From NCBI RefSeq assembly GCF_050920415.1, contig NZ_CP169309.1: 64,000 bases of DNA; one strand, written 5' to 3'. The stretch is from Escherichia coli. Its GTDB lineage: Bacteria > Pseudomonadota > Gammaproteobacteria > Enterobacterales > Enterobacteriaceae. This document shows positions 19,943-50,136 of this stretch, one piece after another. Numbering within the stretch: the stretch's first letter is position 1; each line of letters starts with the position of its first letter. Both the position numbers and the translations under genes were made by a program. A model generated the notes under the pieces. The model saw only the letters and a list, made by a program, of their open reading frames with translations. It was not told where the DNA came from and made no database searches.

Positions 19943-22042
19943 TTAACCTCGGCTCACCGTTTTCGATTCCATCCAATAAATGACCCGGTTGGATGTGGGC
20001 TGATCGCCAACAACTTTGCCATCTGCAGAGATTAGCTTCAGCTCTTTATTAGCCTCATCACCGAAGTAAATCATGCGGTAGCGAAAATAACCGCCCCAGG
20101 GTTCGCGTCCACCCAGCGAACTTTGCATAAACCAGGCGCGGGAGTCGTGAACCTGGTCATCATAGAGAGCCAGTAATTCAGCGCAGGGCTGAGTTCGCGT
20201 TCGCGTTCCCGTTCCCAGTGAATCAATAAAAAATTGTGGATAGAGTCCGTTTCCCATAGCCTTAATTTGTTGATATTCCTTTGCTTCATCATCGCCATTA
20301 ATCAGATACACCGGATATTTAGGAATGACATCCACAAGAATCTGAATGGCTTTCTCCGTGACGCTGCCGTTAATATCGCGCGTCCATCCTTTATAATCGC
20401 TCTGAAATTCTCGGGCTGCCTCTCGCAATTGGTACTGAGCGTTCGTCGGGTCAAGGATAGGTATGCCCTGATTACTTTCATCAAGTGTGCCATTGCCTTT
20501 CTGCGTGTTCGCCCGCTCTTTTTCGATATTTTCCATTTGTTCTTCGCGCGCTTGGGCCTCTTTATCAAGTCCATCTTTATCCAGCTGTGGCGCCTTAATA
20601 TAAAAAGGTTGCACAAGAAGGCTGTTGTTCGCATAGCGACCGATACGCCAGGCGGTGATCCAGCCGATCTGATCGCTAATTGCGCTTTCAAGAACCTGGG
20701 CAAGTTGATAGGGGTGATAACCTTCCCTCGTATCAATCATTTCTTCTGTACCCTGCAAGGTGGTGTTCAGCAGCGTTTGTCGCCAGATGTTGAAGCGTTT
20801 TGTTAATGAATTAGCAATCGTAAATTCCTTTACGCTAGAAGGACTCATAATTCGCAGAGGCGACACACCTTTTATTAATGGAGTAACAAATTTAGAATAA
20901 ACAGCAAGTGGTGCTCCTGAATCAAATGCAGCAAGATACATATCATGCAGGGCTATCTGAGAAAGAATTTCGCCTGAGTCACCACAGGACTTCCCCTGAT
21001 CGCGAACGGGATAGCCACCACCGACATCAGAGTGCATCCCCGGATAGATAACTTCCTCTGCATATAAAGGATAATTGCCTTCAGGACGACGGATTGAATC
21101 CAGCGGAAAGCACAACCGCTGTTCATGCGCAGCGACGAAGTGGCGGCAGCATTTAATCAGGCCGGGAAACTGCGTCTCATCAGGGAGTTGCTGAGTACTA
21201 TCGGCCCATCCCATATGACCGGCTGCGCCCGGTAAAACATGCGCCGCCCCCACAGAAGCTACGGTATCCAGCAGCCCCAAAAACTCAATACTGACAGCTA
21301 AACCGGCCAGCATCACCTGTTGCCTCTGCGGGCAAGCTAACTGAGTCAACCAGTTAACAAAAGTTCGTGCTTCCGCTGCGCCACGGGAAAATCCGTAGAT
21401 AAACAGCCTTACGTTTAGCAGGCGCGGACTAGCTTGTTCTAACTGTCCCTGTAATTTTTCCAGGTAGGGGTTAATCACATTGCGACGATTCACTTCACCA
21501 GTCATCGGCCAAGGAGCACGCATAAGAGGAATGTGCTCTTTTGCCACCTTCTCATTCAGTCCATTTTGGGTTGGGTCAATAGCATAGCTAAGGGCATCCA
21601 CGAGACGTAATAATGCCCAATTAATTCGGTCTTCACCACCGGTGGCAAATTCCAGTCCGCTGTTGCTGTAATCCATTTCACCTATCTTGGGAAATGGTGT
21701 GCCTACACCAGGTATGTAATAGGAAAAATACCCAGCATTACGGTCTTTAATACTTGCGTGGAATAATTTCGCAATATTGGTTGGATGAGAGGCTTTTGTG
21801 TCATTATATTCATTATTATTTGTACCATCAAAAAACAGACTAATATGCAGACTTTGACTACATGTAAAGCCAATTCTAAATCCAGCCTGTTTACTACAGT
21901 TGGTTTTGTGCTCCTCTGTTTTATTGATTTGTTTCAGGTAGTTCGCGTTTACCTGCGCTTCAGATAATATTAATCGCCCATCTTCAGGGAACACCGGGGG
22001 GGCATAACACGGAAAAGCCAGACCACTTATTTCGCTGGACAT
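19943..22042 (-). CDS. T6SS phospholipase effector, Tle1-like (DUF2235 alpha/beta hydrolase)
   Basis: ATG 22042 with GAAGGA SD; ...FFDGTNNN... and GFSRGA (GxSxG) motifs; last gene of the hcp-vgrG effector operon. Confidence 0.7.
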   Translation of the reverse strand: MSSEISGLAFPCYAPPVFPEDGRLILSEAQVNANYLKQINKTEEHKTNCSKQAGFRIGFTCSQSLHISLFFDGTNNNEYNDTKASHPTNIAKLFHASIKDRNAGYFSYYIPGVGTPFPKIGEMDYSNSGLEFATGGEDRINWALLRLVDALSYAIDPTQNGLNEKVAKEHIPLMRAPWPMTGEVNRRNVINPYLEKLQGQLEQASPRLLNVRLFIYGFSRGAAEARTFVNWLTQLACPQRQQVMLAGLAVSIEFLGLLDTVASVGAAHVLPGAAGHMGWADSTQQLPDETQFPGLIKCCRHFVAAHEQRLCFPLDSIRRPEGNYPLYAEEVIYPGMHSDVGGGYPVRDQGKSCGDSGEILSQIALHDMYLAAFDSGAPLAVYSKFVTPLIKGVSPLRIMSPSSVKEFTIANSLTKRFNIWRQTLLNTTLQGTEEMIDTREGYHPYQLAQVLESAISDQIGWITAWRIGRYANNSLLVQPFYIKAPQLDKDGLDKEAQAREEQMENIEKERANTQKGNGTLDESNQGIPILDPTNAQYQLREAAREFQSDYKGWTRDINGSVTEKAIQILVDVIPKYPVYLINGDDEAKEYQQIKAMGNGLYPQFFIDSLGTGTRTRTQPCAELLALYDDQVHDSRAWFMQSSLGGREPWGGYFRYRMIYFGDEANKELKLISADGKVVGDQPTSNRVIYWMESKTVSRG

Positions 22043-22554
22043 GTTGCAGGTTCCTTCATCTCGCGGGGTTCTTTGATAGGATAATTTGGTGTACCATATT
22101 TCTGGCAGACGGTTGTCACTTTTATCTGATTGCACGATAGAAAATGAACGGTCAGGCCACAAAGCTCAGCATCGTATTCCGGGATATCAACAATTACTTT
22201 ATATTTTTGATAATTTGCAGCATGTTTAGCATACGCATCTTCTTCATAGCCAAAACCTTCTTTTTTCATTGCAATAGGTTCAAGGGGGTTCGGGTCTACT
22301 TCCCACTCAATCCGGGCCTTTAATCCCACACGCCACTTATCTGGCAGCATAACGCAACAATATCCTCCACCGTCCCCGAATGGAGAAATATTTGGCCCAC
22401 CGTAACCATTGATGTGTAAATAATTTATAGCCTTATCCGTATGATTTATCCCATTAATATCCACAGCAGTGTAATCTCTGCTATTTTTTGCCATTGAACA
22501 GCCTGATACTGCAAATAAAATCATTAGAGAATAACATTTGAAAATCGCTCTCAT
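22027..22554 (-). CDS. Putative Tle1 immunity lipoprotein, copy 1 (divergent central segment)
   Basis: MRAIFKCYSLMILFAVSGC lipobox; paralog of the next two genes; start taken at MRAIF (AAGGA SD), alternative upstream ATG at 22584. Confidence 0.6.
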   Translation of the reverse strand: MRAIFKCYSLMILFAVSGCSMAKNSRDYTAVDINGINHTDKAINYLHINGYGGPNISPFGDGGGYCCVMLPDKWRVGLKARIEWEVDPNPLEPIAMKKEGFGYEEDAYAKHAANYQKYKVIVDIPEYDAELCGLTVHFLSCNQIKVTTVCQKYGTPNYPIKEPREMKEPATCPAK

Positions 22555-22568
22555 ACTGATACTTTTCC

Positions 22569-49639: not shown

Positions 49640-49656
49640 GTTTAAGGAGAATAACA

Positions 49657-50136
49657 ATGGCAAATCCCGTCTATCTGACACTGAACGGAGAACTTCAGGG
49701 GCTGATTTCATCCGGATGCTCGTCAATGCCGTCCATCGGTAACAAAGCCCAGATTGCACATCAGGATCAGATCATGGTGACGTCACTGTCCCATGGTCTG
49801 AGCCGGGCGCAGAATGTCAACCACCAGGAGCTGACCATCACGAAACCGGTGGACAAATCTTCCCCCCTGCTGGGCAAGGCCATTTCGGAGAATGAATGTC
49901 TGACCTGTGATTTTGTATTCTATCGCACCAACCGCTTTGGTGTTAATGAACCGTACTACAAGGTGAAACTGACTAACGCCCGGATCTCAAACATCGGCCT
50001 TACCGTTCCCCATACCATTAACGACAGCCCAGGACAGCCGGAAGAGTCTGTGTCATTTACCTATGAGAGTATCAACTGGGAGCACAGCGTCGCCGGAACC
50101 AGTGCGTACAGCCTTTGGAGTGAACGGATTTTCTAA
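49657..50136 (+). CDS. hcp: T6SS tube protein Hcp (TssD), core-operon copy
   Basis: ATG 49657 with AAGGAGA SD; 160 aa Hcp-like. Confidence 0.85.
   Translation: MANPVYLTLNGELQGLISSGCSSMPSIGNKAQIAHQDQIMVTSLSHGLSRAQNVNHQELTITKPVDKSSPLLGKAISENECLTCDFVFYRTNRFGVNEPYYKVKLTNARISNIGLTVPHTINDSPGQPEESVSFTYESINWEHSVAGTSAYSLWSERIF

Follow-up and report, generated by a model that had tools for sequence, protein, structure and literature searches.

In this study, we analyzed a 64,000-nucleotide stretch of an Escherichia coli chromosome (contig NZ_CP169309.1 of assembly GCF_050920415.1; hereafter the window), which matches strain MFDS1022581 at 99.9% identity over 29 kb and contains a 36-kb type VI secretion system (T6SS) island at 15436-51592, between yafV and the tRNA-Asp gene aspV. 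An initial annotation, made by eye from the sequence, had described a compositional mosaic in which a GC-rich T6SS core stands against an AT-rich effector-immunity module and AT-rich island edges, and had read this as consistent with separate acquisition of the effector-immunity cassette. The mosaic is real, and its very probable cause is that the T6SS island at aspV is built from modules. The left part of the window carries a Flag-2 flagellar remnant, hicAB, and then yafL through yafV; to the right of aspV, the chromosome continues with dnaQ and rnhA as far as an rRNA operon. The minus strand of the island has the order hcp1, vgrG, tla1 (DUF4123), three tli genes (DUF3304) and tle1, with effector and immunity genes distal to vgrG, and the plus strand carries the core operon. 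The features of the cassette and machinery are as follows.

19943-22042, minus strand: tle1, an intact gene for a predicted 699-residue phospholipase effector (Pfam and PDB matches)
22027-22554, 22569-23123 and 23108-23632, minus strand: three tandem tli1a genes for predicted immunity lipoproteins (PF11745, DUF3304, in each)
23663-23975: AT-rich gap separating tla1 from the tli array, 34.2% GC
23976-24740, minus strand: tla1, predicted DUF4123 adaptor/chaperone for Tle1 (PF13503), 47.5% GC
24753-25447, minus strand: 3' fragment of vgrG (Pfam Gp5 domains), 55% GC
25448-27569, plus strand: insertion sequence IS21 (istA, istB; Pfam rve and IstB) inserted in vgrG, 54% GC
27570-29111, minus strand: 5' part of vgrG, a conserved recombination anchor (Pfam Phage_GPD), 61% GC and third-codon-position GC (GC3) 0.75
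29328-29846, minus strand: hcp1 (Pfam T6SS_HCP), 54.5% GC
29847-30547: divergent hcp1/tssB intergenic control region, 32.7% GC
30548-50136, plus strand: core operon tssB-tssC-tssE-tssF-tssG-tagH-tssJ-tssK-tssL-clpV-vasI-tssA-tssM-vasL-hcp2 (Pfam)

Pfam searches found TssA, B, C, E, F, G, H (ClpV), J, K, L and M, two Hcp proteins and VgrG; the contractile T6SS core is complete, and the accessory proteins TagH, VasI and VasL were also found. The core is vas-like, and we take it for the type that is called 'T6SS-2' in E. coli. Tle1 consists of a catalytic PF09994 (DUF2235) domain and a C-terminal PF22137 domain, and its G-x-S-x-G nucleophile motif (G217-F-S-R-G221) is invariant in a 19-sequence Tle1 alignment. 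Tle1 matches PDB 4O5P, of the Pseudomonas aeruginosa type (E 3e-120), and the match to PDB 6SJL, from the Sci-1 system of enteroaggregative E. coli (EAEC), is confined to the catalytic core (E 2.4e-7). The window Tle1 is accordingly of the P. aeruginosa type, not of the EAEC Sci-1 type. The three Tli proteins score 207-212 bits against the NCBIfam model Tli1a_fam (cut-off 110), with a lipobox ending in SGC readable in their translations, and Tla1 scores 222 bits against its equivalog model (cut-off 200); the NCBIfam search returned no model for Tle1, for YafT or for a hypothetical 167-residue protein encoded near the left border. A run of seven G at 21996 is in frame in the window tle1; it is one base shorter in MFDS1022581, which cuts the length of the annotated tle1 of that strain.

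A flat GC profile across the island would have spoken against the mosaic. Instead, the 1-kb profile spans 35% to 63%, and recursive likelihood-ratio segmentation with a threshold of 40 divides the window into ten segments:

1-15501: 52.8% GC, left chromosomal flank
15502-17901: 36.5% GC, left border block with ISAs1 remnants, a DUF2859 gene and a hypothetical gene
17902-21712: 48.9% GC, group II intron and 3' part of tle1
21713-24095: 39.8% GC, 5' part of tle1, the three tli genes and the gap
24096-29816: 55.5% GC, tla1, vgrG, IS21 and hcp1
29817-30469: 31.4% GC, hcp/tssB control region
30470-33618: 50.9% GC, tssB, tssC, tssE and 5' part of tssF
33619-49881: 57.0% GC, remainder of the core (tssF to hcp2)
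49882-51593: 36.6% GC, right edge, with its boundary exactly at the aspV 3' end
51594-64000: 49.7% GC, right chromosomal flank

The segment boundaries coincide with gene and tRNA borders. Chance fluctuation or a short-window artefact has a negligible probability as the source of these patches: every boundary exceeds a likelihood ratio of 40, the best cut in 20 base shuffles reached no more than 15.4, the boundaries match gene and tRNA borders, and the same pattern recurs in six other genomes. IS21 and the group II intron contribute further patches. The whole-island GC of 51.5% equals the genome level, so the mosaic is visible only in an internal profile.

Relative to the chromosomal flanks (50.3% GC; about 41% in their intergenic DNA), the core from tssB to hcp2 reaches 56.0%, the region from tle1 to the gap 43.6% and the tli array 41.2%, a contrast of 15 points between core and tli. 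The AT-rich pieces that had been picked out by eye thus all proved to be so, including the gap, the control region and the intervals at 50137-50477 (27.0%) and 51264-51592 (28.3%), although the largest AT-rich block (15502-17901) lay outside the span of 19943-50136 to which the initial annotation referred. Two of its generalizations need to be narrowed. The core is GC-rich overall, but tssB to tssE have just 49-53% GC and the remainder 52-61%; and the effector-immunity module is AT-rich in its tli copies (40-42% GC, GC3 0.34-0.35) and its gap, while tle1 (47% GC, GC3 about 0.41-0.45) and tla1 are intermediate.

Codon usage separates the same three classes. Mean GC3 is 0.634 in core genes plus vgrG (18 genes), 0.536 in flanking genes (16 genes) and 0.392 in cargo genes (5 genes), with Mann-Whitney p values of 2e-4 for core versus flank, 3e-3 for cargo versus flank and 6e-5 for cargo versus core. 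Mean distances in relative synonymous codon usage are 0.25 between flank and core, 0.34 between flank and cargo, and 0.49 between core and cargo. The difference between cargo and core is greatest at third codon positions. These values bear on the possibility that the core is the foreign element, derived from a donor of about 57% GC, and that the AT-rich parts are ordinary E. coli accessory DNA. The elevated GC3 of the core agrees with this, as does the position of vgrG, which lies 9-11 points above the flanks here and near the background in other genera; the Flag-2 remnant in the left part of the window shows that GC-rich islands occur in the region. Against it, the cargo falls significantly below the flanking genes in GC3, and the island spacers (27-34% GC) fall below the flank intergenic DNA. 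Since the cargo lies below the flanks and the core above them, both deviations are real, and we regard an account based on the core alone as possible but doubtful. That the core, at 56% against 50% for the host, is itself GC-rich accounts for the unusual size of the contrast in E. coli.

The GC contrast alone would not prove separate histories. Evidence independent of composition nevertheless supports a probably separate history of cassette and core, starting with a gene-by-gene comparison of seven E. coli islands (the window and six strains). All seven share the left flank, consisting of yafV and then the block with ISAs1 remnants, the DUF2859 gene and the hypothetical gene, and the right flank, consisting of hcp1, the control region and tssB onwards. 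The DNA between them differs, with the following cargo in the six other strains:

NC101: Tle1 cassette
NCTC11151: DUF2169 gene, PAAR-like toxin and a small gene
MS8320: DUF4123 gene with an effector of no known type, PAAR, and a second vgrG-DUF2169 module
O157:H7 SS52: Rhs, ankyrin and Sel1 immunity genes, and orphan Rhs tips
N96: M35 peptidase module and Tle1 cassette
MFDS1022581: Tae4 and M23 modules and Tle1 cassette

Cargo that varies between strains beside conserved flanking T6SS genes is one feature of an effector module in the sense of Unterweger et al. 2014, and this is the arrangement found here. The homology between NC101 and NCTC11151 has one end 119 bp past the ISAs1 pseudogene and the other about 1660 nt into vgrG. 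These fixed breakpoints delimit an exchanged unit composed of the 3' end of vgrG, the adaptor, the immunity genes, the effector and a 3' untranslated tail. The 5' part of vgrG is common to strains with different cargo, and the left border block is likewise kept in strains with other cargo. We also considered a recombination junction inside tla1, by analogy with tap-1 of Vibrio cholerae, and rejected it: the GC content of tla1 is fairly even (42-52%), and the gene belongs to the unit that is shared across genera, as described below. In MFDS1022581 and N96, extra vgrG modules (Tae4, M23, M35 peptidase, PAAR) lie between hcp1 and the Tle1-linked vgrG. The window is without them, and its junction falls inside the near-identical vgrG 5' parts (27570-29127), so the loss looks like a deletion by homologous recombination.

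A second line of evidence comes from other genera. A scan with the 19-sequence Tle1 alignment yielded 75 loci in Enterobacterales, Pseudomonas, Burkholderiales and Xanthomonadales. At the closest loci, in Pantoea (L008), Hafnia (L033) and Enterobacter (L012), Tle1 is 49-67%, Tla1 62-63% and Tli 46-69% identical to the window proteins, while the linked machinery is far more distant (VgrG 22-24%, TssM 22-23%, TssF 25%). The gene order there also differs, being vgrG-cassette-tssM, and hcp-clpV precedes this unit in related Raoultella, Photorhabdus and Pantoea dispersa loci. In Pantoea, Hafnia and Enterobacter, the cassette thus sits with a different T6SS type. The incongruence between core and cassette that the initial annotation had proposed as a check is therefore present: cassette proteins are 46-69% identical, machinery proteins 22-25%, and the gene order is different. 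Together, the cargo swaps, the fixed breakpoints and the different core type across genera support separate acquisition of the effector-immunity cassette.

The vgrG 3' end provides a possible explanation for the position of the junction. The VgrG 3' fragment ends in a 24-residue tail, PEKSVCKECLKRAQEAAAAFAPRG (24753-24830), which is conserved in VgrGs linked to Tle1 cassettes at eight other loci, with representatives in Pantoea, Hafnia, Enterobacter, Raoultella, Photorhabdus and Pseudomonas; a role in Tla1/Tle1 docking is predicted. When the reconstructed window VgrG was compared with VgrGs of other genera by BLASTP, only residues 10-556 aligned, at 22-26% identity; the shared tail was missed by this search and was seen on inspecting the C-terminal ends. 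In P. aeruginosa VgrG4a, the last 20 residues have been mapped experimentally as binding Tla1 and Tle1 (PMC13133936). A tail that binds the adaptor and effector would explain why the exchange junction must lie inside vgrG.

The 75-locus survey also shows that AT-rich cargo is not a peculiarity of the window. Across hosts of about 40-71% GC, tli lies below the linked vgrG by a mean of 6.9 points (in 95% of 42 loci) and below the local background in 87% of cases (mean -5.6 points); tle1 is below vgrG in 93% of loci (mean -3.9 points), and vgrG stays close to the background (+0.7 points). The GC of tli tracks the background with a slope of 0.68 (r 0.70), and the cassette genes range over slopes of 0.68-0.79 with r of 0.70-0.80. 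Within E. coli, the alternative cargo genes in the same slot have 31-49% GC and GC3 of 0.20-0.45, every one AT-rich, and every vgrG, PAAR and Rhs core in the compared islands has 55-65% GC. Even within the O157 Rhs gene, a core of 63-67% GC gives way to a tip of 30-42%, next to immunity genes of 37-39%.

These data can be set against the view that the tle1-tli cassette came recently from a donor of low GC (about 40-45%) and still looks foreign. The tli genes, at 41% GC against 50% in chromosomal genes, fit such a donor. So does the closest subclade (L008, L009, L033 and L073), in which tle1 has 46-51% and tli 41-46% GC against a host background of 49-56%; there, tle1 and tli lie 1.5-13.5 points below the host and tla1 matches it, a pattern that leaves room for some recent spread. 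However, the slot also receives unrelated cargo families, which are AT-rich without exception; the offset is systematic over the 75 loci and scales with host GC; and distant E. coli lineages have the cassette in common, at 92-95% identity and with an old yafV footprint (described below). We therefore consider a recent low-GC donor unlikely. An offset found across cargo types and 75 loci that scales with host GC is a property of the cargo as a class; the AT-richness is a general offset of T6SS cargo relative to structural genes and not the fingerprint of one low-GC donor.

That same class-wide offset would also be expected if cassette and core had no separate history, and a small, weakly expressed and fast-evolving cargo had simply drifted to AT or been selected for H-NS-type silencing after co-inheritance. 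The concentration of the difference at third codon positions is compatible with this, and MFDS1022581 and N96, which belong to the lineage of the window, have core and cassette together. Co-inheritance is nonetheless quite improbable, given that strains of identical core and flank type have had their cargo replaced at fixed breakpoints, that the cassette sits on a different T6SS type in other genera, and that the window and N96 differ more in tle1 (97.8% identical) than in the core (99.9-100%).

Several observations weigh against a simple account in which the cassette was added to an existing core. A 47-bp copy of the yafV 3' end (19841-19888, plus strand; original at 15389-15435) lies 55-100 bp downstream of tle1. 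This second copy is present only in the four Tle1-cassette genomes examined, and it was found neither in the three genomes with other cargo nor in K-12. The copy suggests that cassette and yafV were at one time direct neighbours and that the 2.4-kb ISAs1/DUF2859 block came to lie between them later, in which case the cassette would be an old resident rather than a late add-on; since the yafV remnant travels with the cassette, acquisition after the core is not demonstrated. NC101, of phylogroup B2, has the cassette at the same place, which does not suit a recent addition, and per-gene identities between NC101 and the window are comparable for cassette (85-99%) and core (77-100%). Identity to NC101 varies from stretch to stretch within the core, with 99-100% at 29200-31600 and 98-100% at 34400-37200, and drops to 68-88% in the vgrG 5' part, tssE/tssF (32400-33600) and clpV (40000-41600). 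The machinery genes thus appear to be a recombination mosaic themselves, and with such a patchwork core, incongruence is not unique to the cargo. Finally, the strain comparison covers only seven islands, and the cassette count of at least 70 among 5426 complete E. coli genomes is a lower bound from a megablast search that is blind to cassettes below about 85% identity. In the same genome set, clpV-tssM occurs at 90% identity or more in about 597 genomes, a disparity with the cassette count that speaks for separate histories of the two, and the clpV-tssM allele of the window is rare, with 2 genomes at 99% or more; the clpV-tssM search was used for this allele count, and the whole-core search band at 99% or more includes partial matches.

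We propose that the island combines four kinds of DNA. The first is the conserved structural operon with hcp and the 5' three-quarters of vgrG, GC-richer than the chromosome. The second is the exchangeable cassette (the vgrG 3' end with its 24-residue tail, tla1, the three tli1a genes and tle1), in which GC declines from 55% to 41% along its length. The third is very AT-rich non-coding DNA, that is, the divergent hcp/tssB control region and the spacers, and the fourth AT-rich border debris (ISAs1 remnants and yafT) that exists also in strains lacking a T6SS. Judging from the breakpoints, homologous recombination may exchange the whole cassette at once, with the vgrG 5' part and the ISAs1-remnant block as its two conserved anchors. 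The order of events given here is likewise our reconstruction, and the AT offset could stem from a bias in mutation, from weak selection or from a mobile gene pool rich in AT. More tentatively, and with much less confidence than in the modular build itself, the offset series (tli below tle1, tle1 below tla1, tla1 below vgrG, and vgrG close to the genome) may be maintained and host-scaled rather than a donor leftover, and the VgrG tail of about 24 residues may be a minimal portable docking element. Selection for H-NS-type silencing might sustain the offset, as might continual turnover in a mobile gene pool with an AT bias, and the tail would let the Tla1-Tli-Tle1 cassette graft onto unrelated T6SS types, both vas-like and hcp-clpV-vgrG.

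The mosaic and its reading are already published for V. cholerae, and the principle, the island and the cassette families are all known. Effector modules of V. cholerae have about 9% lower GC than the conserved T6SS genes, which was read as independent acquisition (Unterweger et al. 2014, PMC3988814), and the exchange junction lies inside the adaptor gene (chimeric adaptor model, PMC4557670). The window resembles these modules in its conserved structural genes, its strain-variable and lower-GC effector-immunity region, its vas-like core (VasI, VasJ and VasL Pfam domains) and a junction inside an upstream adaptor or spike gene. It differs in species and cargo, in the larger contrast between core and tli, and in the position of the junction, which is in the 3' part of vgrG here and in the middle of the adaptor gene there. 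For E. coli, no equivalent study existed according to a review of 2019 (PMC6730261).

The closest counterpart of the cassette is the vgrG4a-tla1-tli1b-tli1a-tle1 island of P. aeruginosa (PA3294-PA3290; PMC13133936), with the same gene order and families: a tailed VgrG, a DUF4123 Tla1, DUF3304 Tli1a in more than one copy, and Tle1. A window-like tail was also present in the one Pseudomonas VgrG inspected (L044, P. viridiflava). Unlike the P. aeruginosa island, the window has three full-length tli genes and a vgrG broken by IS21, and its predicted effector-immunity cassette is attached to a complete T6SS core and not to an orphan vgrG. In the EAEC Sci-1 Tle1-Tli1 pair (PDB 6SJL), a phospholipase of the Tle1 family and its lipoprotein immunity gene likewise follow vgrG, but the pair is only distantly related and belongs to a different T6SS cluster. 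Its Tle1 is loaded directly on the C-terminal extension of VgrG1, which includes a transthyretin-like domain, and an adaptor is not described (Flaugnatti et al. 2016, summarised in PMC6730261).

The island itself corresponds to the aspV-inserted T6SS island of LF82 and extraintestinal pathogenic E. coli (pathogenicity island PAI I), which is about 35 kb long with a whole-island GC of 50.1% (PMC2941450). The site, the two hcp genes, clpV, vgrG, two ImpA-like genes and the overall GC (51.5% in the window) are alike, and the window is distinguished by its rare clpV-tssM allele, the IS21 in vgrG and a group II intron. In EAEC 042, this clpV-tssM core segment is found with 94% identity near 245 kb of the chromosome. 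The Rhs elements of E. coli have a GC-rich core and an AT-rich C-terminal tip and immunity gene, with H-repeat/ISAs1 sequences. In keeping with this, the O157:H7 version of the slot carries Rhs next to ISAs1 copies, and the window keeps ISAs1 remnants at the same border; the window cargo, in contrast, is a predicted phospholipase loaded by VgrG and adaptor, not an Rhs toxin.

The E. coli aspV island thus confirms the organisation of a conserved machine with swappable ammunition known from V. cholerae and Rhs, and no long-standing question is opened or closed. Mildly new are the host-scaled AT offset over 75 loci and the portable VgrG tail across unrelated T6SS types. For annotation, a whole-island GC value can conceal strong internal structure, and the cargo slot, the control region and the tRNA border can each be located from the points at which GC changes; low GC by itself should not be read as a particular donor or a recent transfer.

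The borders of the island contain the following features.

15502-17901: AT-rich left border block, 36.5% GC (segmentation, Pfam, MFDS1022581 annotation)
15707-16195, minus strand: DUF2859 'ICE protein' gene, in the left border block
16286-16789, minus strand: hypothetical 167-residue gene, in the left border block
17018-17781, minus strand: ISAs1 pseudogene, among ISAs1 fragments of the left border block
17916-19796, minus strand: group II intron with ltrA (Rfam RF01999 and RF00029; Pfam RVT_1 and GIIM), about 49% GC
50137-50477: AT-rich spacer after hcp2
50478-51263, minus strand: yafT lipoprotein gene (so annotated in N96 and K-12), 40.6% GC
51264-51592: AT-rich yafT-aspV spacer (30% GC in K-12)
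51593-51669, minus strand: tRNA-Asp gene aspV, right border of the island (ARAGORN), with a composition change point at its 3' end (segmentation)

The initial annotation treated the AT-rich edges as part of the island contrast. Their composition was as described, but yafT and its spacers occur in 4224 of the 5426 genomes, and K-12 keeps them although it has no T6SS; they are therefore not borders brought by the T6SS. K-12 MG1655 has 2.4 kb at 38% GC (K-12 locus 2009-4419, with yafT, ykfM, yafU and yafF) between aspV and yafV. Its yafT is just about 82-83% identical to that of the window, and its yafF, an ISAs1 fragment homologous to window 16960-17237, is the surviving part of the left block. 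The K-12 interval would be the scar of a loss or the trace of an earlier layer, and not a clean empty site. The spacer after hcp2 occurs together with this core type in about 580 genomes. A classical integrase-borne tRNA island was also considered and rejected: the island adjoins aspV, but no integrase was present among its open reading frames (ORFs) or annotations, and a search that allowed two mismatches found no direct repeat of the 3' end of aspV.

The 3' half of hcp2 falls to 48% GC (49657-50477 region), and the end of hcp2 looks like a second cargo slot, which in the window holds just the 341-bp spacer at 27% GC. In O157:H7, hcp2 of strain SS52 (locus 6147-7996) has 33% GC and is followed by AT-rich DUF1311 and hypothetical genes. 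At the other end of the operon, hcp1 is 100% identical to the NC101 and N96 copies, and the control region is 96.6-99.6% conserved in these strains. Promoter and terminator scans gave no excess over shuffled sequence, whether in the hcp/tssB control region, in the cargo region or in the gap between tla1 and tli.

IS21 splits the only vgrG of the island (24753-29111), and homology to relatives breaks at both of its ends. Removal of IS21 plus 2, 5 or 8 bp restores a VgrG ORF of 743-745 residues. Because of this split, the VgrG spike meant to carry Tle1 is probably non-functional in the window strain, though tle1 is intact; with VgrG broken and no PAAR gene noted in the island, T6SS function in this strain is doubtful.

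The group II intron lies downstream of tle1 and is absent from NC101. Its ltrA is frameshifted at 18572 by a 1-nt deletion relative to MFDS1022581, and repeated GATCTTTCCCTGA motifs adjoin it. We considered whether the intron lies exactly at the cargo breakpoint; the junction reading places it about 15 bp off, beside a small variable patch, and the relation between the intron and the left cargo breakpoint is one of proximity, not identity.

Outside the T6SS island, the Flag-2 lateral-flagella remnant (fliP to flhA; 981-7210) is GC-rich (55-58%, GC3 0.69-0.76), and the hicAB toxin-antitoxin pair that comes after it (7315-7942) is AT-rich (43-45%); the two form another compositional island in the window. 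To the right of aspV, the gene in the gloB position (53818-54573; named via the N96 and NC101 annotation) has 40.2% GC and a GC3 of 0.36, unusually low for its neighbourhood.

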